Assembly (NCBI RefSeq): GCF_000372725.1
Contig: NW_005202428.1
Location: 2,890,670 to 2,954,669, forward strand
DNA length: 64,000 nt
Direction: 5' to 3'
From: Emiliania huxleyi CCMP1516
Taxonomy: Eukaryota
In this document: positions 2,234 through 63,389 of the stretch, one piece after another
How positions within the stretch are numbered: position 1 is the stretch's first letter
Layout of the letters: each line of letters begins with the position of its first letter
The notes under the pieces: generated by a model
What the model saw: only the letters and a program-made list of their open reading frames with translations
The model's database searches: none
What the model was told of the DNA's origin: nothing
Translations under genes and position numbers: made by a program

Positions 2234-2999
2234 TTCGCCGCGGGGGAGAGCAGACCGCAGTTCATTAGCGCACTCCTCTCGAGTTCGCGCACATGTGCAC
2301 AAGATCCGCGTGGCGGGGGAAACCGGGGCGGCGGGGGTAGAGCTGTCTCACAAACGTTAACTTTGGGCCTAACAGTTGCACTATTGTTGGCTGAAATCCT
2401 CAACGTTGTTCAAGTGTTCTCCCCAGCCGAAGCTGTTACTGTTTGTTACTGGCCCTCCGCGCCCGCCGACGGCCGCGACCCCAAGGTTGTCGCCAACTAC
2501 CTCGGCAAGACGCCGCAAGCGCGGGCCCCGCCTGCCAGTGTCACCGCCGACGAACCGGGCGTCGCGCGGTATGTCCTGAAGAGAAAGTCGTTCAACAAGT
2601 TCGCAAAGTCTTTGCCTCGCGCCCGCAAGGGCGGCCCGACCCAAGTCGACTACGAGCTCGTCCGCATCATCACCGAGTCGACCGACGGGGCGGACTGCCT
2701 CTTCAGCTTCTGCACCTCCTTTAGCTGGGGTGTCATGCACGAGCGTCTCAAGCGGCTTGAGGACGACCTCAACGCCGTCTGCCTCTGGAAGGACGATGGC
2801 GTCAGCTGCAGGCCCCTCGGGCTCTGCAGCATCTTCACGCGCTCAGCCGAACGGTGCATCGCGCTCCAGGAGCGCGACTGGGCGGAGCAGTTCTGCACCA
2901 CGCAGCTTCCTGAGGTTGCCAAGGTCAGGGCGGAGGCACTCGAGGACGCGCCACCGTCACCACCGCCACCGCAGAAGCCGCGTACACTTCGAGGTGCAT

Positions 3000-3823
3000 C
3001 ACGCACGGACACGGCTCGGCCGAGAAGCTGCGCTTCATCCAGGAGCAGCAGCCTCTTTACCGCGAGCAGGCTCGGCAGCGTCAGCAACTGCGCGACCTTC
3101 ACCGCAGCGCAAGCGACAGCCTACTAAGCTATGCTGCAGTGCGCAGTTCTACCACCGGAGAGCCCCGCCTCAGCTCCAACCGGCTAAACAGCAGCTCGAG
3201 CACCCTCTTTGAGACGGTCGCGCCACGACCAGAACTCACCGACAATTCGTACGCGGCGACGGGGTCGCTCTCGATGCTCGGTTCACAGGTACTGTCGTGT
3301 CGCCGCTCCTCGGGCTCCTTCGGATTCGGCACAGCGACCCGTGAGCAGCTCGGACGGCTCTACATCTCCCCGGCGCACCTCGGGCATCTGCGCTGCCTAG
3401 AGGGTGCACCGCCGGGATCCTACGAGGTGAGCTCCTCGCTCGGGCGGCAGGCGCCTCCGAGACAGCTCTTGTCGCCGCCCCACGCGTGAGAAGCGAGATG
3501 TTGCCGCGTTCGATCTCACTGTAGGTGCTCGACAAGAGGCTTTCTTACCCTGCCCCTGCCTTCTCGCTGGTCGACCGCTGGGCTGCCGAGCGGCGTGAGC
3601 AGGCCGCGCGCGCTGGGCCAGGCCCGGGGCAGTACTGTGTATGAGGTCTGTCGAGCATCCCAGCACACCCGCTCTGCGGCCGCACACACCCCAGCGCGCA
3701 GGGCGGCTCATGATCGTGCGCACACCCGCAACCCACGGCCCGTGCGCACAGCGCAACTCGACGCACACGCCATACTACCTGCCAAACACGAAGCGCGTGC
3801 CCTCGTCGATGGACCCGCCCTAG
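3000..3823 (+). CDS. SHIPPO/STPG (PGPGxY repeat)-like axonemal protein, spliced, 5' end uncertain
   Basis: Reads SMLGSQVLSCRRSSGSFGFGTATR...APPGSYEVSSSLGRQ|VLDKRLSYPAPAFS...GPGPGQY; GC-AG intron near 3450-3524. May join the upstream 2400-2990 ORF. Confidence 0.5.
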
Positions 3824-5530: not shown

Positions 5531-5897
5531 CTTCAGGCTGCATTCTTCTTGACCCACCCGTCTCCATACGCGTGGTCTTTGACCCATCCCTTTCCAGTCG
5601 AGTGGTCGAGCGGTCCGTCTCCAGACGGCCAGAAAACAAGGGCGAAAAAGAGTGAGTCTTTCGCTAAGCGCGGGTTAGCGCGGGTTAGTGCTCACTAACC
5701 CGGCACGGGTCAGCACGGGTCAGAATGGGTTACCATAACCCGGCACTAACCCGGCACTAACCCGGCACTAACCCGGCACTAACCCAGCGCTAACCCGTGC
5801 GGCTGGGGGGCATACGTCAGCATGGGTCTGCGCCGGGTTAGGGGTGGGTTAGTGCCGGGTTAGTGCAGCGCACCCCGGGTTAGAGCTGGTTGGCGAG

Positions 5898-8495: not shown

Positions 8496-9065
8496 AGCAC
8501 CTCCCTCCTCACTGCTCCGTGCGCGCCTGACGCCCAGTCGACACACCTCCCGGTGCGCCCATGGCCTCCGTTGCAGTGGCAGTGCGGGCTGCAGGGGGCC
8601 CGGCGGCCGGCCCTCAACGTGTGCCAGTGATGGCCCTAGGGAGGAGTGCACTGAGGGCGGTACATTATAGATCCTGTGGCATGAGACTGTCCCGCTCGCC
8701 ATGCGCCCGCGGCTGTGGTGTGGCGAGTGTGCAGTGAACGCACGAGAGAGGGGCGGAACGAGCCGTAGACGGCTCTAACCCAAACCTAACCCGAGACTAA
8801 CCCGAGACTAACCCGGCGCTAACCCGGGCTGCTCGGGGGCATACGTTAGGATGGGTTAGTCTCGGGTTAGTGCCGGGTTAGTGCCGGGTTAGTGCCGGGT
8901 TAGCGTCGGGTTATGGTAACCCGTTCTAACCCGTGCTGACCCGTGCTGGGTTAGTGTGGCTTAACCCGGTGGAACCCACGGCTAACCCGCGCTTCCTGAC
9001 AGACTCACAAAAGAAAAATCTGGTCGCGCCAGGACTCCAGCCCACGGCCTCAAAACTGGCGAGGG

Positions 9066-12000
9066 ATGTCGCGGCGGGTGAGTTCAGCCGAGCTGGCGGC
9101 GCACGCCACCAACGAAAGCTGCTGGATCGTCATCCACGGCGACGTCTACGACGTCACCGACTTTCACCACCCAGGCGGCAACGACCGCCTCTTCGAGCGC
9201 GGAGGCCGAGACGCCTCCGCCGCCTTTGACGCGATCGGGCACTCCATGCACGCGACAAAGCACATGCAGGCCCTGCGTGTCGGCCAGCTTGCTCCGTCGC
9301 CGGACGCCGCCGCCGCCTCGACTTCGCACCTCCCGCCTGCGCCCGCGGCGCCACGCCTCACGCACGCGGACCTGCCCGCGGCGGCGAGCGCGTCATTGGA
9401 CCGAGCCGAGGGCGGTGGGATCGCAGCCTCCTCGGGCCGGCCTCCGCCCACCGTCCCGCCCGCCCGCCCCGCCTTGACCTCGCTCCGGGTGGGGGCGGCG
9501 GAGCTGGCCGGAGCAGCGAGCGGCGGCGGCATCCGCGCGGGAGGCGGCGGCGTCGGCAGCGGTGCAAACAGCGTCGACGGCGCCTTTCCAGGCGGCGGCG
9601 GGAGTTTGGAGCCCGACTCGCAGCGGTGGGTCCTCAAGTCGGCCGTCTTCCACCGCGCTCCTCGGCCGCAGGACCGGCTCTGGTCGACTCGGTGCCGCGG
9701 CTTCCTGCCGGCGAGGAACCCGCCCGAGGAGGTGCCGCAGCCGTACAAGCTGCTCACCGAGCTGGTCGAGGGGCTCCCCGCCGCGCTGGCCGAGGGCTCC
9801 TTCCGGCGCCTGGTCGACGCCCGCGCCGCCGACTTCGCGCCACTCGAGGCGGCCATCCGCGCGGAGCGGGACGAGGCGCTGCTCGAGCGCATCCACTCGC
9901 TCTACGGCTACATCGGCAAGGGGTGCGCGCTCGAGCCCCCCCACCCACCCACCCACCCACCCACCACCTCCCCACCCACCACACACACACACAGCCTTCT
10001 TCCTCTCCCGTCACCCCCTCTCTTCTTCGCAGGTACGTCCTCGAGCCCCCCGCGAGCAGCGGGCCCCGCCCCTCCGCCTCGGCCGCACCGCCCTCCCCGC
10101 CGCCGCTCGGCCGCGTGGCGACGGCGCACGCATCGCTCGGAGACGGCCCGCGGGGCGGGCACATACCCCGACCCTTCTCGGAAGCTTCCCCCCGTAGGCG
10201 CCGGCCTCGCTCGAGGCGCTCGCGCCCGCACGGCCCGCACGGCCCGCCACGGCCGGCGCCGCAGACACTGGAGCCGAGCCCGCGCCGCCGCAGCGCACCA
10301 CCGCAGCGGGCGCCACGCCCGCCGCCGCCGACGCTCCCGGAGCGACGTCCCCCGGCGGCGGGAGCAGCGGAGGAGCAGCCGTCGCGCCGTCGCCGCCGCC
10401 GACGGCGCCGACGCTTGCCGCGCCGGTGCCGCTCGAGCCCGAGGCCAAGGTCGTTCCAAAGTTCCTCTCGGACGGCTGGCTGGCGGTGTCTGCGCGCGTG
10501 GGTCGGCAGCCGACCATCGACTACGCCAACTGCGTGCTCTTCAACTTTGCGCTGCTGCACCCGGCGGGCGGCGTCACTCCGCACACCGCTGCGAACAGCG
10601 TCTCCTCACACCTTCTAGCTGCGGACAGGAGGGCGGCATCACGCCGGACAATGTGCGAATCCTCAACCGCTTCACTGGCGCGCGACACGGGGCTCTCTCG
10701 GCCCCACCGCACGGCCACGCCACGCTCCACTGCCCGCGTCCCTGTAGGCTTGCTCGACGAGGAGTGGTTCCTCAAGACCCACGTCATCATCGAGTCCGAG
10801 GCGGCGGGCGTCGTCTCGGCCGTCTACGACGCCGCCGCCGCAGTCCGGCGTTGCGACCTCGACCGCCTGCTCGCCCAGCTCACCTGGCTGGAGCAGGCGT
10901 ATAATATAATAGAATAGAATAGAATATAATATAATATAATATAATATAATCACCTGGCTGGAGCAGGCGCTCTCGCACGTCGCGTCAAACACGCTGCGCC
11001 TCATGTTCGAGCGGCGCGACGAGGACCGCCGCCCACGGCGGCGAGACACTGCCGTCGCGCAGCCCTCACCGCCCGCTGTTGCGCCGCAGGACGGCTTCAT
11101 GTGCGAGCCGGACGCCTTCTTCCACCGCGTGCGGCCGCTCATCTCTTCGTGGACGGCCCTCTTCGAGGGGCAGTACGACGACTCTTCCGCGCTGCACGAC
11201 CTCACCTCCCAACTCGAGGCGCTCGACCGGCCGGAGGCGCGACGCGTGCAGTAAGCCTCCACCAAGCGTCACGACACGGCTCTCTCTCAGGCGGTCGAGC
11301 GGCTCGAGGCGGCGGCGGCGGCGGCCGGGTCCGGCCTGCCCGACCTGGCCCGCCCGCGACCCCTCGCCGGCGTGTCGAGGCTACGCCTACGACACGTCCA
11401 CGGCGCGTCCCGTAGGCGCCGCACCGTGAGCACCTCCGCCGCCGCATCGCCTCGCTGCAGCGGCGCAAGAGGCTGTGCGGCCCGTCGGGCGCCATGTCGG
11501 CCATCCTAGACACTTCCTAGACACTTCCTAGACACTTCCTAGACACTTCCATGTAGGCGCCATGTCGGCCATCCTCCCGCTCTGCGACGGTTTCCTCGGC
11601 ATCTCGATGTCGTCCGAGGCGCTCGGCGCGATGCTCAAGGCCTTCGAGCAGTACATGCCCGCGCCGCACCGCGATTTCCTCGACGACGTGCGCCGCCGCC
11701 CCCTCCGCCCCCTCATCGTCCGGCTGCGGGAGGCGGCGCGCCGTGCGGGCAGCGGCGTCGGCAGCAGCGGCGGCGGCTCGCCGGCGTCGCTGTCTGCGAC
11801 CGCCGACACGGGCGGTCCGCACGTCTCGCCGTCTCCAGGCGGCGGGCGCGGCGGCGGCGGCGGCGAGGAGGCGATGGCGTCGGGCGGTGGTGCGGCGGGA
11901 GTGGGTGCCACGGCGGGCGCGGGCGCCGGCGCGGCGGAGGACGAGTCGTGGCCGGAGTGTGCCATGGCGACGTTCGAGGGCGACGAGGCCTTCCACGAGG

Positions 12001-14119
12001 CGGGCTCGGCCTCTGCCTCGCCGTCTCGCGGAGCATTCGGTCAACCTTCTCGCAGCTTTCCCACAGGCGGCCGTCGAGTCGCTGGTCGACCACTACAATG
12101 CGGTTGTGCGGCGCGTGCTCGACTTTCGGTGGCGCCACCTCTCGTACATCGAGGAGTACGTCATCAAGCCCTCGGGCGGGATGGCCACCGCGCGGGGCAC
12201 GGGCGGCACGCCCGCCTTCGCCTACCTCAACCAGCACATCAACGACACCGAGGCGGCCCTCATTCCGACCCTCACCTCGTCGCCGCTCCTCCGCCCCCCC
12301 GCCGCACACGCCCCGCCGGATTGGAAGCTGCCGGCTGCCGCCTTCGCCGAGGCTGCCCTCACGCTCCACGCCGGCCAGCGCCTCGGAGCGGAGCACGCGG
12401 CGGCCGGCGAGCTGTGGGCGGTGACAGACGAGCGGGGCCTGCTGCCCGCGCGACCCCCGCTCGACCTCGACGGCCTGCCTGCTGCGTGGCGGGCCGCCGT
12501 GCGCCTGCTGCGACGGCTGCCCGGCGCGTGCGTCCCTCCCCCAACCTTCCGCTCGCTCGTCGCCGCCGCTGCGGCGCGCGGCGACTTCCCCCCGCCCGCC
12601 GCGGTCGCCGCGCTGCCCAGCGAAGACTCCGCGGAGCGAGCGCGTTGCGTGACCGCTTACGTGCTCGCGGGCTGGCGCGCCGCCAAGCCGCCTCCCCAGC
12701 GCGAGCCTCCCGGCCTCGCTGCCTCCCCGGAGGCGCATCGTCGTTCGTACGCCGAGGGCGGCGCCGCGGCGAGGCGCGGCTGGTGGTGCCGCGCCGCTCT
12801 CGCGCGGAGCCAAGCCTGCCTCGCGACTGTTCTCCTCACTTCTGGCCCGTCTGCCCGGTAGGTGCCACCGCCACCCGCGCCACGACGACCAGCTCGACGA
12901 CCCTGCCGCACCCGACGACGCGTCGCCGCCCCCGACGGCGGACCGCGACACCGAGGAGACGCCGCCCGCGCCGCTGCTCCTTCTGCACGCGGCCCTCTGC
13001 GGGAGGGTGGACCGGCCGTCTCGTTTTGGGGTTGCGGAGCTGCTTCTCTACAATTGGCGGCTGCTACCGCCGCTCGGCGGGGACGAGCCCGCCGAGGGCG
13101 AGGGCGAGGGCGAGGGCGGGGCCGAGGGCGAAGGAGACCGGCCTTCGCTACGCAGGATGCGGCGCGTCGTGCCGTGCCAGCGGTTCGTGTGCTTTGAAGA
13201 GGAGGACTGGTTTGTGCGGCTGCACGTCACGCTCGCCGGCGAGGCGGTGCGAGGCTTCCTAGACACCTCCTAGACACTCTCCTAGACACTTCCCATCCTC
13301 CGGGGTCCCACGGGCGCCTCCGCGCCTCACAGGGTCGCTTGGTCGAGGCGGCGCGGCACTGTGTGGGCGCCTGCGACACGAACGAGCAAGTGCGCGCGCT
13401 GCAGTCGCTCGAGGGGGCGCTTGAGACCCTCGTCAGGGTGAGGGGGCGCGGGGCCTTCCTCCCCTCCCCCGAGCTCTCCCACTGATTATGGCTGAGCTCC
13501 CCAGGTGCACTATGTCGCCGGCATTGGCCAGGCGCCTGGCGCCGACGCGCCAAAGGTCACGCCGGCGCTGCTGATGGGGCGGATGCACCGCTTCTTGCCG
13601 CCGTCGCCGCCGGAGCTCGGCCTCGCCTCGGAAGCGGAGGCGCGCGCGGTGCGGGTCTACTGTGCGAGCGGCATCGACCAGCCGATGGTGCTGCACTTGC
13701 TCGGCGTGCATCGCGGCGGCCACGCCATCGGCCGCTTTCGCGAGTGGCAGGCCTCTGCCGATCTGCCCACGCCACACCGCGCGTTCCTCGCCGACGTGCG
13801 GTGCTGCACGCCCATGCGCGAGCGCGTCGAGGCGGCTGTCGGCGGTGAGCGGCTCGCGGTGCAGGAGCTGGCGCGGCTCGAGCTCGCGCACAACTCGTGC
13901 ATCGACATGGCGCTCCGCCTCTTCACTCGCCGGTATGAGCTCGTGCGCGCGCTTCTCGGCGTCGACGCGCTCGCCACCAGCTGGCAGCACGAGCGTGGCC
14001 TCATCCAGGAGGCGCGGCTGAGGCTGCTCGTGGAGCGACGCGAGATGGAGGGGCCGCGACGCGGCCTCCCCACACGCGCCCATGCCTACAAGCGCGAGCC
14101 CACCGAGCGAGGCCGGTGA
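9066..14119 (+). CDS. IDO: Cytochrome b5 - indoleamine 2,3-dioxygenase - degenerate second IDO domain fusion, multi-exon
   Basis: b5: CWIVIHGDVYDVTDFHHPGG...GHS. IDO-1: RGFLP, QPTIDYANCVLFNF, FTGLLDEEWF..H..IE, FFHRVRP, GPSGAMS, YMPAPHRDFL, FRWRHLSYIEEYVIKP, GTGGT. IDO-2: RGLLP, LLYNW, EEDWFVRLH, LPTPHRAFL. Confidence 0.85.
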
Positions 14120-22876: not shown

Positions 22877-23200
22877 TTATAAGGTCCCTCGGGCCAGTTG
22901 GTTGGGGCAAACCCTGCCCACCCCCTAGAGCTCCAAGTAAGGCCCAGGTGTGGCCTAGGGCATCAGAAGGGACCAAGAGGAGTCCAGTCTGAGCCATAGA
23001 GACCATGTCTTTGCCCCCGAAGGTCGCGTTCAAATGCCCCGCCGGAACGGCCGTCTCAGTGGTGTCCGGCCGGCGCGATCACCGAGCTGTGACGCTCAGG
23101 GAAGACTGATGAGGTGCTGGTTTCTTTGCCCAGGGCTGGCCTACGGCCCGTGCTGGACCAGCTGAGCAAGGTTTGGGAAGAATCCCCCATTCAGATCCGG
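22877..23200. repeat. Dispersed repeat, possibly a decayed hAT transposase 3' end; second copy at 56364-57935
   Basis: Shares blocks such as GAGGAGTCCAGTCTGAGCCATAG and GTGGTGTCCGGCCGGCGCGATCACCGAGCTG with 57.65-57.9 kb; minus strand gives FPNLAQL...TSS.FPER with frameshifts. Confidence 0.6.
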
Positions 23201-23769: not shown

Positions 23770-26273
23770 ATGCTTGGCCTACTACTGCCGTTCGCATCGG
23801 GCTATAGCGCGGCGACGCCGCGGCTGGCCGCCACAGCTCGCGTCACGCCGCTGCGGTTGTCGAATGCCGAGCCAGCTGTCAGCGGCCTCCAGGCCCTGCA
23901 GAGGAAAGCGCTGCCGTTTGCGCGCCCGCCGCTCGCGCCTCGAAGGAGGCGACCGCCGCCCGTGTGCAGCGCGAGCAAGGTTGGCTCTGTGCCGCTGGCG
24001 CTCGATCCGCATCGCTGGGTGCAGCTCGGCATCCTCTCGATGCTGGCTCTGCTGAGCGACTGGACGTGCTTCGCCACGGTGGCAGTGCCGTCCGAGTGGA
24101 TGACGCTCGAGGGGCACGACGCTGCGGAGCTGATCGACATCTTCCTCGCCTCCAACGTGGTGTCCTGCTTCCTCTTCACCGACATCGCCGCGCGCCTCGG
24201 CCTCAAAAAGGTTGTGACGGGGGCGGCGACGATGATGGCGGGCGGCTGCCTGCTCCGCTCGGGCATCCCATTCGTGGAGCCCGCGATAGAGGTCATGCCC
24301 GGGTACGGCTGGGAGGTTGCGGGCACCATCCTGGTTGGCATGGCGCAGCCCTTTTTTCAGTGCACTCCGCCGCTCCTGTCCGCCACCTGGTTCGGCTCCT
24401 CCGAGCGGGCGCTCGCCACCGCCACGGCGATCAACTTCAACCAGGTCGGGATCGCCACCGCCTTCATCGTCGGAGGCCTCATGGCAAACTCGCCCGAGGG
24501 CATGCACGCCTACTTCGACGTACTCGCCTGCGTCTCGATCGCCGCCGCCGCCGCCACAGCCCTCCTCTTCCGGGACAGGCCAGAGACGCCGCCGTCCGCC
24601 TCGGCCGCCGCCGCCGCCGCCGAGCTCGCCGTCGCGCCGCCGCCCGCTCCGCGCCTCGAGTACCCGCGCAAGGCACTCGCCCTCCTCCGCTCTCCCGGCT
24701 TCGGCGTCGCGACCGCCTCTTTCGTCGCGTCGATCGGCTGCACGAACGTCGTCTCGGCCTTCACCGCGCCCGCCCTCGCGCGGGCTGGGCTGATGGACGG
24801 CACGCGCCAACCCTAACCCTAACCCTAACCCTAACCCTAACCCTAGCCCTAGCCCTCGCGCGGGCTGGGCTGATGGACGGCAGGCGCGAGCCCCGCCAAG
24901 GGAAGGGGAAGGCTGGGCAAGGGGAGGCTGGGCAAGGGGAGGGCTGGGCAAGGGGAGGGCTGGGCAAGGGGAGGGCTGGGCAAGGGGAGGGCTGGGCAAG
25001 GGGAGGGCTTGGCCGCGCCTCTTCTCACCGGCTGCGAGTGCCTCGCGCTGCAGGGATGCAGATCGACCTCGCCGGCGCGGGCTTCCAGCTCGCCATCGTG
25101 CTGGGCGGGATCGGGCTCGGCGGACTGGTCGACCGCAACAAGAACTTCAAGCTCGTCATCCTCTCCTGCCTCCTGTCGTCGGTACTTCCTAGACACTTCC
25201 AAGACACTTCCTAGACACTTCAAGCTCGTCATCCTCTCCTGCCTCCTGTCGTCGGTACTTCCTAGACACTTCCAAGACACTTCCTAGACACTTCAAGCTC
25301 GTCATTCTCTCCTGCCTCCTGTCGTCGGTACTTCCTAGACACTTCCTAGACACTTCCTAGACACTTCAAGCTCGTCATTCTCTCCTGCCTCCTGTCGTCG
25401 GTACTTCCTAGACACTTCCAAGACACTTCCTAGACACTTCAAGCTCGTCATCCTCTCCTGCCTCCTGTCGTCGGAACTTCCTAGACACTTCCTAGACACT
25501 TCCTAAAAAACTTACAGGCTCGTCATCCCTCTTCCTGCCTCCCGGTCGGAACCCCCCGGGCCCTTTGCGCCCCAACCCCCGGCCAATTCTTCTCCCATCT
25601 TCCCTCTTCCCTTCTCNNNNNNNNNNNNNNNNNNNNNNNNNNNNNNNNNNNNNNNNNNNNNNNNNNNNNNNNNNNNNNNNNNNNNNNNNNNNNNNNNNNN
25701 NNNNNNNNNNNNNNNNCCCTCGCCTACCGCCTACCGCCTACCGCCTCGCGCCACCCCCGTGCCACCTCCAGGTGTCCTACCCGTGCGACGAGAATGCCGT
25801 CGAGGCGACGCAGCAGCTCGCCGGTACTTCCTAGACACTTCCTAGACACTTCCTAGAATGCCGTCGAGGCGACGCAGCAGCTCGCCGGCACCCGCCCGCC
25901 CCGCCGCCCCAACCCCCTGCCCACGCCCCACACCCAAGCAGCGACCGCCCGGCAGCGCCCCTGGCTGCCCTGAGCCAGCCGCCCGCGCCCAGGCAACCTC
26001 TTCTCGGCGCTGCTCGTCCCTATCTGCCAGAGCGCTGCTGCATACGACCTGCAGATGCCGGGTCGTGCGATGGACATACGCGGCGATACGCTCGTGCTGC
26101 TGGCGCTGGTGCCGGCCCCGCGACGCGACCGCCCCTCTCTCGCGAGCCGGGAAAGCCTCAACCCCGCCTGTCGCACCGCGCAGGTGGCCGCCACCGCCGT
26201 CGCCTTCTCCTCATTCGACGCGCCCCTCGAGCGGACCCGCGTCGACGACGAAGGCGCCGCCGCGGAGCTGTGA
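23770..26273 (+). CDS. MFS transporter of the FLVCR/SLC49 type with a putative bipartite plastid-targeting N-terminus; spans an assembly gap
   Basis: HRWVQLGILSMLALLSDW, PPLLSATWFGSSERALAT, VSYPCDENAVEA; N-terminus MLGLLLPFASGYSAATPRL... Confidence 0.8.
24809..24851 (+). repeat. Interstitial telomeric (CCCTAA)n tract inside an intron
   Basis: Five CCCTAA units then CCCTAG variants, between 31-bp direct repeats. Confidence 0.9.
24899..25010 (+). repeat. Intronic 16-bp minisatellite (GGGCAAGGGGAGGGCT)n
   Basis: About 6-7 visible copies. Confidence 0.85.
25144..25550 (+). repeat. 73-bp tandem unit made of the exon 3' end plus about three CTAGACACTTC repeats
   Basis: Units start at 25144, 25217, 25290, 25363 and 25436, with a degenerate sixth before the gap. 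Confidence 0.9.
25617..25716. other. Assembly gap (100 N)
   Basis: N run. Confidence 1.
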
Positions 26274-34125: not shown

Positions 34126-36785
34126 ATGGAGCCGCAGTCTCCCGGCGGTGCTGGCCCCTCGCGCGGGGCGACCACGCACACGCCGGACGGCGCGTACAAG
34201 TTCGAGCTCGGGCCGCTCGGCGCGCTCGGCTCGGGCGCGCACGGCGTCGTGCGGCTTGCGCGGCATGTGGAGTCGGGGGAGATGGTTGCGATCAAGGTGA
34301 TGCCGACGGCGGTGATGGGGGCAGTGGCCAAGGAGCTGGTCGCGATGGCCAAGGTGGACCACCCCAACATCGTGCGGCTGTTGGGCACGCAGGTCGACCT
34401 CGACCGGAAGCGGGTCTACATGGTGATGGAGCTCTGCCAAGGCGGCGAGCTCTTTGACCGGATCGCCGAGTGCGGCAAGCTGGAGGAGGACCAGGCGAGG
34501 CAGTACTTGGTGCAGATGGCGCTCGCGATCGAGCACTGCCACGGGCTCAACGTCTACCACCGCGACCTCAAGCCTGAAAACATTCTCCTCTCGCAGCAAG
34601 ACCGCGTCAAGATTGCAGACTTTGGCGCCGAGAGAAGCGCCGGGCGGGGAGAGGGGATGCGCGCGGCGGGGTGAGTCGGCCCTCGCTCTCTGCGTAGGCC
34701 TCGCCGCGATGGTCGGCCAGGTGCGCGAGGACGCCTCCTTCCTGCGGCACACAAAGTGCGGCTCGCTCATGTATGCCGCGCCAGAGGTGCTCGTCTCGGA
34801 CGCATCGCGAGGGTACGACGCGGCCAAGGTGCTGCAGCTCACCAGACCGGGTGGGCGGGCGTCACCCGCACCCGCGCCCGCACCCGCCGCCTCACCCCGG
34901 CTCTAGGCCGACATCTGGTCGCTCGGCGTCATCCTCTACTCGATGCTGTCTGGCGCGCTGCCCTTCCAGGCGCGGCGGGCACCGACGCGCCCAAAGTGGG
35001 GAGGGAGGGAGGAGGGGAGAGGGGAGAGGGGGTTGCAGAGCGCGCGGCAGCTGCCGAGCGCCGCCGCCCCCTCCGCCACCGCCGCGCAGGTCGCCAACGC
35101 GCGGAAGTGCACGCGCTATGCCGTCGTCGAGGAGCGCGGCGCGGCGGTCCTCGCTTCAGGGAGATGCGCGCTCACCGTCGCTTGTGTCTCATTACAGGAG
35201 CGAGGCATGGCGGTCCTCTGCGACGCGTCCGGCTTCTCGGCCGACGCGAGCAGCATCCTCGTCGCGATGCTCGAGCCCAACCCCGCCCGGTACGCTCCCT
35301 AGCACACCCCCTCCCCCGACGCCTCCTGCCCTCCCCTGACCCTTCCCCACGAGCTCTTCTCCCCACGAGCTCTTCTCCCCACGAGCTCTTCTCCCCACGA
35401 GCTCTTCTCCCCACGAGCTCTTCTCCCCACGAGCTCTTCTCCCCACGAGCTCTTCTCCCCGCGAGCCGCCTCTCCCACGCCCTCCCCAGAGCCGCTCCTC
35501 CTCACCGAGCCCTCGCCCCGCAGCCGCCTCTCCGCCAAGGGCGTGCTCGCCGCCGCGTGGGTCGCCGCTGCTCGCCCAGAGAAGCCGACCCGCGCGGTCC
35601 CGCCCGCCGAACCGCCGCAAACCCGAAAGTGGTCTGTCGAGCTCGGCGACAAGACCATGGACAAGGCAGACAAAGTGGGCAAGGCGACCGGCGCCGAGGC
35701 CGGCGCGGACCTGGCCGGGGAGGAGGGCGGCACGCCCAAGCGGCGGCGCAGCGGCAGCGAGGCGGAGGCGGCGGCCAAGCGGCAGGCGGCCGGCGACGAG
35801 GCGGCGGCGGAGAGTGCGCGGGAAGGGGCCCTTGCCACGCGCTGATCGACGCCCCCCCCCCCCCCCCCCGTCCCACCCCGTCAGGCGACGAGCCCGCGGC
35901 CTGCCCCCGCGCTGCTCGGCGCCAACGATGCGCCAGAAGAGGTCCCGCCGGGCGTCAACGGCGTGCTCGTCCGCCCGCTGCTGGGCTGCTTCTAGGAGCC
36001 TTCTAGGAGCCTTCTAGGAACGTTCTAGGCATGCTCGTCCGGTCGCTGGGCTGGGTGCAGCTCCCCGAGGAGAAGGAGAAGATGGTCGGCGATGTGGCGA
36101 GCGCGCTGGACTCGATGGGCGTCAAGTACGAGGTTGCACTTCCTAGACTCTTCCTAGACACTTTCTAGACACTTCCTGGACTCGATGGGCGTCAAGTACC
36201 CTGTTGGCCACGCTGCGAGGGGCTCGCCCCCAGCAGCCTCGCGCGAGCCGCACCGGACCCTTCCGCCAGGTGGTCAAGGGCGAGCTGACTGACGTCGTGT
36301 GGGTGGGGGGGGAGGAGCCGACGCCCGAGGTGGCCGCCGCCAGCCACATCAGCCGCAGCAGCAGCAACGAGCCGCCCGCCGCCGAGGCTGCAGACGCCGC
36401 GCACGCGGGCAGCAGCAACGGCGGCGCGGCGGGCAACGGCAGCGGCGGCGATGTGCCGGCTGGCCGGGGCAGGGGCGAGAGCGGGCCGGCCGACGGTGAG
36501 GGCGGTGGGAAGGGCGGAGGCGGCGCCCCTGCAGGCGCCGCGCTCGAGCTCGAGCCGGCCTCCCCGTCAAAGTACTCGGAGGGCAGGCTGTGCGTGCGGA
36601 TCCGCGTCAACCCGTCCGCCGAGGACAAGTCGGAGGTGCACATAGACCGGCAGGCGGGGGACGTGCTTCAGTTCCACTCCTTTTACCGCGACGTGCGCAA
36701 CCAGCTCGCCGGAGCGAACGGGTGGGTGGAGAACCACGGCCGGTACGAGCACGAGGTCTTCCCGAGTCAGGCGGACTTCAAGTGA
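34126..36785 (+). CDS. Ser/Thr protein kinase, CAMK group (SNF1/CIPK/Chk1-like), with possible KA1-like C-terminal domain; multi-exon
   Basis: LGSGAHGVV, VAIK, HRDLKPEN, DFG|L, TKCGSLMYAAPE, ADIWSLGVILY; introns 34625-34697, 34829-34906, 34970-35089 and others. Confidence 0.9.
35345..35462 (+). repeat. Intronic 16-bp minisatellite (CCCCACGAGCTCTTCT)n
   Basis: About 7 exact copies. Confidence 0.9.
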
Positions 36786-46677: not shown

Positions 46678-48225
46678 ATGCCGCGCAGCTCGCCCGATCC
46701 GTCCACGCCGCGCTCCACGTACTCGCTGCGGCCCCGGACGCGTCCTCGCGTGGAGGCCCCGCTTCGGCTGACCGACCTCTTCGACGACGTCCTCGAGCAG
46801 TGCCTCCCGCTGCAGATTGCGGACGCTGCGCGCGCGGCGGCCTCGTGCCGTGCGCTGCTCCGGGCGTGGCAGCGCCCCTCCTTCGCCCGGCGCCTCGAGC
46901 TCCCCGACACGCCGATGCGCGCGGACGGCGCGCTCGCCTGCCTGAGGAGGCTCGCGGATGCCGGCAACCCGAGCGCGCGCTTCCGCCTCGGAGTCGCGCG
47001 AGTGTACGAGTCTTCGGCCGCGGAGGCGGGGGAGGGTTACGAGGAGGGGCTCCGCCTCCTCAAATCGCTCGCCGAGCCGCCTCCCGAAGAGAACCTCGGT
47101 GCCCTCCGAGGCGACGCCCTCTTTGAGATCTGGCGCCTCCGCACCCCCCGCACCCTCTCTCTGCCCCGCGCGTACCTCAGGGGCAGGGGGGGGGTCGAGC
47201 TGCGGCCTCCCCTCTCCCCCCTGCCCCCCTGCCCCCCTGCCCCCCTGCCCCCCTGCCCCCCTGCCCCCCTCGCCCCTCGCCCCTCGCCCCTCGTCCCTCC
47301 CCCTCACCCCTCGCCCCTCCCCCTCCCCCTCCCGCCTCCCCCTCCCCCTCCCCCTCCCGCCTCCCCCTCGCGGCTGGCTACGCGCTCACGCCCTGCGGCG
47401 CCGGCGAGCAGGCACTTGACCAAGGACGGCGACGAGAGGGAGCGGTTGCTGCGGCGTGCCGCCTCCGAGGGCCACGTCGCATCGCAGATCGAGCTGCACG
47501 GCACGTCGAAGAGCCACCTGCAGACGCTTGGCCTCCGCCGGCCGCTCGACGCGTCCGGGGCAGCCAGCCTAGTAGCAGTCAGCCTAGTAGCAGCGACCGT
47601 CGCAGCGAGCCGTCGCAGCGAGCAGCACACTCTCGCCTCGCCCCGCCCCCGCGCCTCTCGCCTGTGCCTCTTCCCGGCCTGTGCCTCTCCCCGGCCTGGC
47701 TCACCGCGACTAGCCCTGACCCTAACCCGAGCCCCCCCCTCGCCGCAGGTCTTCTCCCCGGCCTGGCTCACCGCGAGCGAGAACATCCTCGCTAGCCCGT
47801 CTGCGGAGCGCGACCGCGAGGAGGCGAGCGGCACGGCGCCGCCCGCGACGCGTGCACGGCACGTCCACGACACGTCCACGACGCGTCCCTCAGGCGACCG
47901 CCTCGCGCCACTATTGCGACCGGCCGGGCTGCGTGCGCTGGCGCTTCCGCAAGAGGGAGGTTCGGAAGCGGGAGGCGGTCGGCCTGACAGGCTCGCCATA
48001 CATCCGGCTCTGGAAGTGCGGCCGCTGCCGCTGCGCCTGCTACTGCTCGAAGGCCTGCCAGACGCTGGCGTGGCCTCGCCCGCACCGCGAGGCAGCCGGA
48101 GGGAGGGCGAAGGGCGGCGTGGCGCGCTCGGGGCCTCAGCTTGCCCGGCGGTGTCTCTGTAGGAGTGCGACCGCATCCTGGGCTTGCACGCGAACGCCCT
48201 TCTCGCTGCCGGCATGGATGCTTGA
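46678..48225 (+). CDS. F-box-like + Sel1-like + MYND zinc-finger protein, multi-exon
   Basis: LTDLFDDVLEQC...AASCR; ADAGNPSARFRLG; AASEGHVASQ; CDRPGC...KCGRCRCACYCSKACQTLAW...EC. Confidence 0.8.
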
Positions 48226-52585: not shown

Positions 52586-53465
52586 CATTTGCCGCCAACC
52601 ACAAGTCATGTCGTTGCTCAGGTCCACTCTCGTGTCGGACACTTGTACCTCCACAGATAATGATGTTGGCGCTGGGGTCCCCTTCGGGTGCATCGTGACA
52701 GCGACGGCGGGATTACCACTGGTGTTCCGTCCAGGGCGAAAGAAAGAAAGAAAACAGACAAGACAAGGGAGGGATGGGAGGACGGCACGCCGCCACCACA
52801 CAGGGATTTTAAGGAGAGGAGTGTGGTGCTAGCCGTCGCCCACCCTAACCCTTGGTCGTCTGCCTCTTTCCATCTCTCTTCGCAGTCCCTCGCCGATTCT
52901 CGCTGCAACCTTCATGCCACCTCGCGGTCGTCCCACTCTCGTCGTTCTCCCTCCTGTCGCTTCCTCCTCTGTCGCGTCGCTCTCGTCTGCCTCATCCTGC
53001 GACGCCGCCGCCGCCTGCCGATCCCTTGCTCTCGCGGCTTCTCCCGCCTTTCGGCGCAACCTCGCGGCATATTTTGGCGCGTGAACAGGGCTCCAGGCCC
53101 CAAATGACGTGTGAGTGTTAGAGTTGTTTGGTATTGCTAAAAATCTCTCTCTCTCTATTTTGGCCCCTCGAGTTTATCGAGCTCTCCTCGCGCAAGGACG
53201 ACTCTTCTGACGCCCACTCCGATCATTTGCCGCCAAGTCATATCGTTGCTCAGGTCCACTCTCTCTTCGAAAACTTGTACCTCCACCGATGATGTTGCTT
53301 GTTGGCGCTGGGGTCCCCTTCGGGTGCATCGTTACAGCTGACGACGGGATTACCGTCCAGGGCGAAAGAAAGAAAGAAAGAAAACACACAACAAAGGGAG
53401 GGATGGGAGGACGGCACGCCGCCACCACACAGGGATTACCGTCCAGGGCGAGCTAAAAAAAGAAA
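52584..53465 (-). mobile_element. Head-to-tail array of RVGDG*-family units with a nested CRE-A tail
   Basis: Junction CGTCCAGGGCG|AAAGAAAG at 52738 and 53364; CRE-A tail at 53079-53155. Confidence 0.8.
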
Positions 53466-62555: not shown

Positions 62556-62887
62556 GCTGAGTGTGGTGCGCGGGGACGGAAAAAGAACGCGGCAGACCCG
62601 CTGGTAGCAAGGTTAAGCAACCCAGCGACGGAGATGGTGCGGGGGTACGGGTGTTCCAGGGGGTCACGACACGCACCGACCCTTCACGAACCGAAGGCAC
62701 AGTAATCCGGCAACGTGTTGGGCGCCCCATTCCGTTTAGGGCTAGGTCGGCTCAGGGCCCCGTCCACTTCCCTCCCACTTGGCGCCTGATGATGAGGAGA
62801 TGCCACCCAGGCCAGCCGGGGCAGGGGCGGAGGGCGAGGGCGGAGGGCGGGATGGGCGCCAAGCGGGAGGGAGCGGACGGGGAGGGG

Positions 62888-63073
62888 AAAGAAAGAAAGA
62901 AAGAAAACAGAAAGCCAAGGGAGGGATGGGAGGACGGCACGCCGCCACCACACAGGGATTTTGTGTTGGGATTTTAAGGAGAGGTGTGTGATGCGCTAGC
63001 CGTCGCCCACCCTAGGGAGTCTGCCTCTTCCTATCTCTCTTCGCAGTCTCTCGCCGCTTCTCGCTGCAACCTT
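62888..63073 (-). mobile_element. RVGDG*-family 5'-truncated insertion with 12-bp TSD
   Basis: GACGGGGAGGGG at 62876-62887 and 63074-63085. Confidence 0.9.
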
Positions 63074-63103
63074 GACGGGGAGGGGCGCACCTTGCAGTAG
63101 CAA

Positions 63104-63344
63104 AAGAAAGAAAGAAAGAAAACAGACAACCCAAGGGAGGAATGGGAGGACGGCACGCCGCCACCACACAGGGATTTTAAGGAGAGGTGTGTGGTGCGCT
63201 AGCCGTCGCCCACCCTAGGGAGTCTGCCTCTTCCTATCTCTCTTCGCAGTCTCTCGCCGATTCTCGCTGCAACCTTCATGCCACCTCGCGGTCGTCCCAC
63301 TCTCGTCGTTCTCTCCCTTGTCACTTCCTCCTCTGTCGCGTCGT
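63104..63344 (-). mobile_element. RVGDG*-family 5'-truncated insertion with 12-bp TSD
   Basis: TTGCAGTAGCAA at 63092-63103 and 63345-63356. Confidence 0.9.
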
Positions 63345-63389
63345 TTGCAGTAGCAAGCGAAGTGTTTTCTATCGTCGACGTCCCTCTAA

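Follow-up and report, generated by a model that had tools for sequence, protein, structure and literature searches.

The short insert that interrupts an IDO-like gene in the window (the whole 64,000-nucleotide stretch of DNA analysed here) is, in our moderately confident reading, the scar of a staggered break whose repair drew its filler in trans from plentiful satellites, with a subsequent filter on spliceability. The filler, about 45 bases of an array of the 11-mer CTAGACACTTC, probably had as its template one of the many repeat arrays in the genome. This 11-mer is one of many fillers found in the same type of scar.

At the focal site, an exact 20-bp direct repeat with a spacing of 68 flanks the CTAGACACTTC array and an ATGTA linker; four units, at 11506-11549, are exact. 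The sequence-only reading had described the 68-nt insert as a copy of the next exon's start, about four 11-mers and ATGTAG, and the exact 20-bp copies bear it out. Left unspliced, the reading frame meets a stop inside the array. Among 10 frame-keeping G[TCA]..AG excisions tried around the array, the one shown in Table 1 is the only one to restore the G.SGAMS loop, which we take, from the IDO1 structure, to be the active-site loop. The spliceosome is predicted to remove this segment as a GC-AG intron. The window has a GC content of 60-76%, and GC donors are in the majority in Emiliania huxleyi, next to some GA donors (available part of PMC4028052). Base composition, splice style and the types of repeat suggest that the window belongs to this lineage.

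Table 1. Features of the window. Coordinates count from the first base of the window.
Feature	Position	Strand	Remarks
Host gene, cytochrome b5 and IDO-like domains, ~12 short introns	9069..14119 (ends approximate)	+	Pfam pieces in 6/8 segments; tblastn of homologues
Sister scar, same gene: 20-bp duplication and (TATAA/TAGAA)n, spacing 70	10880..10969	+	also in L045
First copy of the 20-bp target duplication	11488..11507	+	all but the first base inside the predicted intron; gives the G|GC donor
Predicted 68-nt GC-AG intron	11489..11556	+	sole motif-restoring excision
(CTAGACACTTC)x4.3 array	11504..11550	+	first 4 bases overlap the duplication end (apparent TCCT microhomology)
ATGTA linker	11551..11555	+	echoes CCATGT of the duplication; its A and G11556 form the acceptor AG (sequence; TRF row 11549-11569)
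Second duplication copy, start of the next exon	11556..11575	+	IDO Pfam match begins at 11559
Degenerate 11-mer array in an older intron	13257..13293	+	duplication not detected
Sister scar: 31-bp duplication and (AACCCT)n telomere-type filler, spacing 80	24772..24882	+
73-bp unit (duplication and 11-mer filler), 5.4 head-to-tail copies	25144..25542	+	adjoins an assembly gap
34-bp duplication and 11-mer filler, spacing 64	25791..25888	+	at an apparent existing donor site
24-bp duplication and 11-mer filler, spacing 70	36106..36199	+	at an apparent existing donor site
24-bp duplication and degenerate telomere-like filler, spacing 67	47686..47776

The host gene carries sub-threshold PF01231 pieces in six exon segments, and PF01231 and PF00173 occur together in its close homologues. 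A word-based protein search with a 59-aa query gave no match; a HMMER search with the downstream exon returned 47 relatives and a second search 9 more, and in 44 of these 56 homologues the G.SGAMS motif is contiguous. At the protein level, homologues are continuous across the focal site, among them an ORF of 1140 aa from a contig of 9 kb; at the DNA level, no empty allele of this site was seen. The gene fuses cytochrome b5 to an IDO-like domain, with another, degenerate IDO-like region behind it; several homologues of ~960-1170 aa share the fusion. Reading frames and the homologue alignment also point to a probable GA-AG intron at 11024-11090. Elsewhere in the gene, decayed copies of neighbouring exons, possibly older scars, lie at 9922/10032, 10563/10628 and 11217/11289 (spacings 110, 65 and 72), with uncalibrated scores of 12.5-13.

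An independently assembled metagenome contig, L045, is 99.6% identical to the window over 2.4 kb and carries the same insert. Three bases of its first 11-mer unit are changed relative to the window, echoing the local CCATG of the duplication. The sequence-only reading had joined exon copy and repeat through TCCT microhomology: the overlap is present in the window, but it may partly be the work of later homogenisation, since the first unit differs in L045.

Matches to CTAGACACTTC with at most one mismatch number 25 in the window, against 0.48 expected, and fall into clusters at 11506, 13259, 25189-25502, 25831 and 36143. Several further scars have a similar anatomy (Table 1); for the sister scar in the IDO-like gene, sequence predicts excision of 10897-10966, again as a GC-AG intron. 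Other repeats were noted in the window. A degenerate duplication surrounds an array of (CTTCTAGGAGC)n, a related 11-mer family, at 35965-36045. Inverted copies of a small hairpin element made of (TAACCCGGCAC)n arrays lie ~3 kb apart at 5652-5890 and 8770-9008; they are 86% complementary over 128 nt, one of them is matched by metagenome locus L064, and the element, with its telomere-like 11-mers, looks like a member of a MITE or foldback family. A ~203-bp repeat stands in tandem at 62876-63345, with a related fragment at 53346-53450 that has a 20-bp flanking duplication, and a dispersed repeat at 22883-23039 is ~89% identical to copies in metagenome loci L024 and L052.

Scanning metagenome DNA for the 11-mer gave at least 124 loci; the search required two perfect units, so the sample is biased to young arrays. 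The pattern had 0 matches in viral contigs and 0 in prokaryote genomes. The loci presumably come from the same species as the window, which is seen directly for L045 alone. Of 189 arrays, 157 had full flanks; removal of weak, array-made and duplicate cases left 117 events, 94 of them simple and 92 of these at most 130 nt long. For the site count, the repeat was masked, neighbouring arrays were merged, alleles were collapsed and a duplication score of at least 12 was required.

Among the matches listed, 99 of 119 non-redundant sites have a flanking duplication, compared with 5 of 1500 swapped-flank controls. In the 92 simple events listed, the duplication spans 12-42 bp (median 24), the filler has a median of 44 nt and the insert a median of 69 nt. 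Total length falls within 60-80 nt in 68 of these 92, its spread is narrower than in all 2000 permutations, and longer duplications go with shorter fillers (rho -0.46). Length modulo 3 is flat among the listed matches (41/41/35 of 117 events). The two duplication copies are identical in 69 of the 117 events listed, so many events are young. The sequence-only reading had proposed mapping the flanking direct-repeat lengths, which these figures supply; its argument that the 11-mer was copied from a shared source, rather than made by independent slippage, is supported, as this 11-mer recurs at 119 unrelated sites, of which 99 have a target duplication.

The anatomy is not tied to this 11-mer. A motif-blind scan of the listed loci and the window found 61 further duplication events with other fillers, at a median spacing of 70 and including a few overlapping or array-edge calls; the same scan on two Markov-shuffled sets found 1 and 0. 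Fillers include other 10-11-mers, TATAA, TAT, TAC, AACCCT and a non-periodic recurring filler; their periods range over 3-11, with weak or no periodicity in some of them. Excision is possible in 38 of these 61 events, against 24 expected. The overall density is 145 events in 232 kb of array-selected DNA. Some fillers, in L047, L048, L075, L076, L009, L062 and L100, are AT-rich and palindrome-rich with a loose 4-base period; AT-rich fillers hold 26 palindromic six-mers versus 10, and an excess of stop triplets on both strands.

One event is caught as a polymorphism. Loci L054 and L001 are alleles with ~98% identity: L054 is filled, with a 31-bp duplication and a TAT filler of 39 nt that contains an internal AG|GT, and L001 is empty, its open frame running uninterrupted through that site. 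The two differ by duplication and filler together, which makes these one presence/absence unit.

Orientation was assigned with a codon model trained on window genes; at the threshold applied here, leave-gene-out tests gave the right call in 155 of 163 cases. Among the matches listed, it oriented 40 of the 94 simple events, 27 sense and 13 antisense, the other 54 being not orientable; Pfam matches in 25 of 109 flanking segments, chosen by the codon model, gave 18 sense and 7 antisense. Both orientations occur inside single HDAC, glycosyltransferase-20 (GT20) and TTL genes. The 11-mer had been said to lie always in the gene's sense orientation. Within the window this stands, as all 25 matches are on the + strand, although they rest on about 3 genes: the IDO pieces at 9-14 kb and an MFS gene at 23.6-24.8 kb are both on +, and so probably is the 36-kb gene, judging from a kinase ORF 1.5 kb upstream. 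Elsewhere it gives way to the mixed counts above, and the argument it offered for an RNA template fails because both orientations occur. A residual 2:1 sense bias is left among the matches listed (18/25, p=0.04; 27/40, p=0.04).

The splice-site statistics agree with a filter on spliceability. Among the 94 simple events listed, 51 can be excised exactly as GY..AG on the repeat strand and 50 on the other strand, with ~24 each expected by chance. Relative to the host gene, such sites are found on the coding strand in 30 of the 40 oriented events listed versus 17 of 40 on the other strand (p=0.006). At 16 of the 30 coding-strand sites, the donor falls in the first three duplication bases and the end of the filler supplies the AG, which is the geometry of the focal insert. 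A palindromic CTAG yields AG in either orientation. Listed events that have no excision site still show a median length of 74 (n=19), so length may be partly intrinsic.

The preferred mechanism, a staggered break filled from satellites, would run as follows. Two nicks 12-42 nt apart would leave complementary overhangs, and fill-in without re-annealing would duplicate the target. A free 3' end would then prime on a distant satellite array, whose DNA or RNA could be copied from any phase and in both directions; 2-5 nt of microhomology would often assist the priming, and a few local bases may sometimes be recopied too, as in polymerase-theta-type end joining. The products that survive in exons are, as the statistics show, ~70 nt long and can be excised as GY..AG, with the donor mostly in the first duplication bases and the AG at the filler end; their splicing is predicted. 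Allele comparisons show that arrays later change their unit number and homogenise and that the duplicated copy decays. As every insert would enlarge the pool of templates, the repeat would promote its own spread.

Microhomology at the junctions is modest. Among the 92 events listed, matches of at least 3 nt are enriched, with 12 on the left and 8 on the right versus 3.7 expected on each side, whereas matches of at least 1 nt are not (40 and 41 versus 39); selection for splice sites partly dictates the 2-nt matches. The extra bases at junctions show weak local templating (168 versus 146 +/- 8, null maximum 171), and part of this signal is plain extension of the duplication. All 11 repeat phases are used at both array ends in the listed matches. 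A candidate template source lies in metagenome locus L027, where a 1.7-kb CTAGACACTTC array sits inside a ~160-bp satellite (1196-2905). The variant spectrum of the short arrays correlates with that of this long array (rho 0.46, p=0.007), a likeness that fits a shared template pool or a shared mutation bias. Among the listed matches, unique flank that would name a donor array was found with no filler. End joining at a staggered break is favoured because of the microhomology, the use of all phases, the lack of a flanking unique body and the L027-like variants. The polymerase-theta-like templated insertion put forward in the sequence-only reading fits the findings. We know of no strong preference of this kind for distant satellites in ordinary end joining.

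A bolder scheme, which we think rather unlikely, gives this lineage a dedicated and still active machinery for making introns: a polymerase that adds repeats on an RNA template, supplied by excised repeat introns or by a tRNA-headed L027-like satellite transcript, would extend staggered nicks by ~45 nt, so that introns template introns and most of the genome's short introns and its 10-11-bp satellites share this origin.

Target-primed reverse transcription, also unlikely in our view, would have a LINE- or Penelope-type enzyme copy an RNA rich in the repeat, be it the tail of an element, a SINE-like RNA or introns after excision, the duplication being a long TSD. The long, variable duplications do resemble non-LTR TSDs, such as the long ones of Dualen (PMC9977147, in its available part); a variable length of 12-42 bp is what such a process predicts, and the 2:1 sense bias also speaks for it. 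So does the layout of L027, where a tRNA-Arg(TCG) gene stands on the minus strand at 2969-3041 with the 1.7-kb array directly downstream, at ~65 nt: this SINE-like arrangement is the sole lead to an RNA template. Against it, the tRNA is seen at 1 of the 119 listed loci scanned, many fillers are unrelated, and microhomology is symmetric across both junctions. A reverse-transcriptase domain was found in none of 87 window ORFs scanned (of 236 listed), and no shared unique element body lies in the flanks of the 189 arrays listed; what flanks share are alleles, overlapping loci, other simple repeats or a pair, L015 and L072, that looks paralogous. The suggestion that the repeat is a retroelement tail is not upheld, as non-allelic arrays have no unique flank in common save in this paralogous-looking pair.

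Replication template switching, distinctly unlikely, would make an identical sequence product without a double-strand break: a nascent strand departs once past the target, copies ~45 nt of satellite and re-primes ~25 nt upstream. It would account for head-to-tail multiple units such as those at 25144-25542 and for the several arrays at 22 of the 119 sites, among the matches listed; these can, however, also be explained by unequal exchange between duplicated copies. Both switches would need homology, and about half of the junctions have none.

Extension of broken ends by a telomerase-like enzyme that adds repeats from one or several short RNA templates, as in interstitial telomeric insertions, is improbable. 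The scar at 24772 does join a telomere-type filler to a 31-bp duplication, the 11-mer units depart very little from their consensus (1.5% variant bases where the duplication copies are identical), and there is a mammalian precedent (available part of PMC2246262). But the array ends show all 11 phases on both sides instead of a template-defined one, and the many fillers have periods of 3-11, some of them weakly periodic or non-periodic. In-register bases are less enriched than the 75-77% given for rodent interstitial telomeric sequences in the available part of PMC2246262, where duplications accompany only 5-16% of events.

A plain tandem duplication that made the intron, with the repeat grown in place by slippage later, is very improbable: arrays do change after insertion (L045 versus the window, L067 versus L117), but the same 11-mer cannot arise independently at 119 unrelated sites, duplication and filler appear jointly between ~98% identical alleles, and the duplications alone are far shorter than ~70-nt introns. 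An assembly artefact, conceivable in a repeat-rich draft with gaps, one of which abuts the 73-bp tandem at 25144, has a negligible probability at the focal site, since the insert is also present, as a distinct allelic variant, in a second and independent assembly.

Among known systems, the staggered-break repair scar is best filed, by analogy, as a variant of the intron gain by staggered double-strand-break repair proposed for neo-introns of Daphnia pulex (PMC4202315; reviewed in PMC3443670; both in their available parts). A target direct repeat around a foreign insert, the hallmark of such gain, is found at the focal site and at 99 of the 119 listed sites. Both systems share a filler next to a direct repeat of the adjacent exon, presence/absence polymorphism and some AT-rich fillers. 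The Daphnia exon repeats measure 4-12 bp (33 among 90 introns), with mostly unknown filler sources (PMC4202315, available part), whereas here they measure 12-42 bp at 99 of the 119 sites, the fillers belong to shared satellite families and the length centres on ~70 nt, among the matches listed. As in intron gain by tandem genomic duplication, splice sites often come from the duplicated exon as AG|GY (available part of PMC3443670); unlike there, the duplication is too short, and foreign filler gives the length and often the AG. With interstitial telomeric insertions the scars share a tandem repeat at a break, microhomology and, in one window event, telomere-type filler, but in the available part of PMC2246262 duplications are a minority and the filler is one telomerase product, while here duplications are the norm and many different fillers occur. 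Fill-in by CST/Pol-alpha at 3'-overhang breaks, which gives tandem duplications in mammalian cells, would explain the duplication; the abstract of that study mentions neither satellite filler nor an intron outcome (PMC8355091).

Our scars differ from Introners in their ends. Introner elements, for example in Micromonas and Aureococcus, are repeated sequences that make many introns, with one splice site derived from the target and one from the insert. The 11-mer would likewise create many introns, but with no fixed ends or TSD length, at any phase and in either orientation, and no terminal inverted repeats were seen at the listed arrays. Membership among Introners, which have fixed ends and a fixed short TSD, is rejected, as ends and duplication lengths vary freely here. 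In haptophytes, a search of mainly open-access literature did not find this anatomy of duplication and satellite, and a prior description is possible.

The sequence source of most newly gained introns is described as an open question in the available parts of PMC4202315 and PMC3443670. Here the filler can be traced to satellite families that the sites have in common, each target copy offers enough sequence for dating its event, and events are dense, at least one of them still polymorphic. The decayed copies in older introns of the IDO-like gene suggest that many introns of this lineage may have arisen in this way. Should the organism be of the culturable Emiliania/Gephyrocapsa type, which it resembles, intron birth by break repair would be testable with population genomics and paired nicks. 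For the Emiliania genome, 10-11-bp intronic repeats are reported, and the process proposed here would give them an origin.
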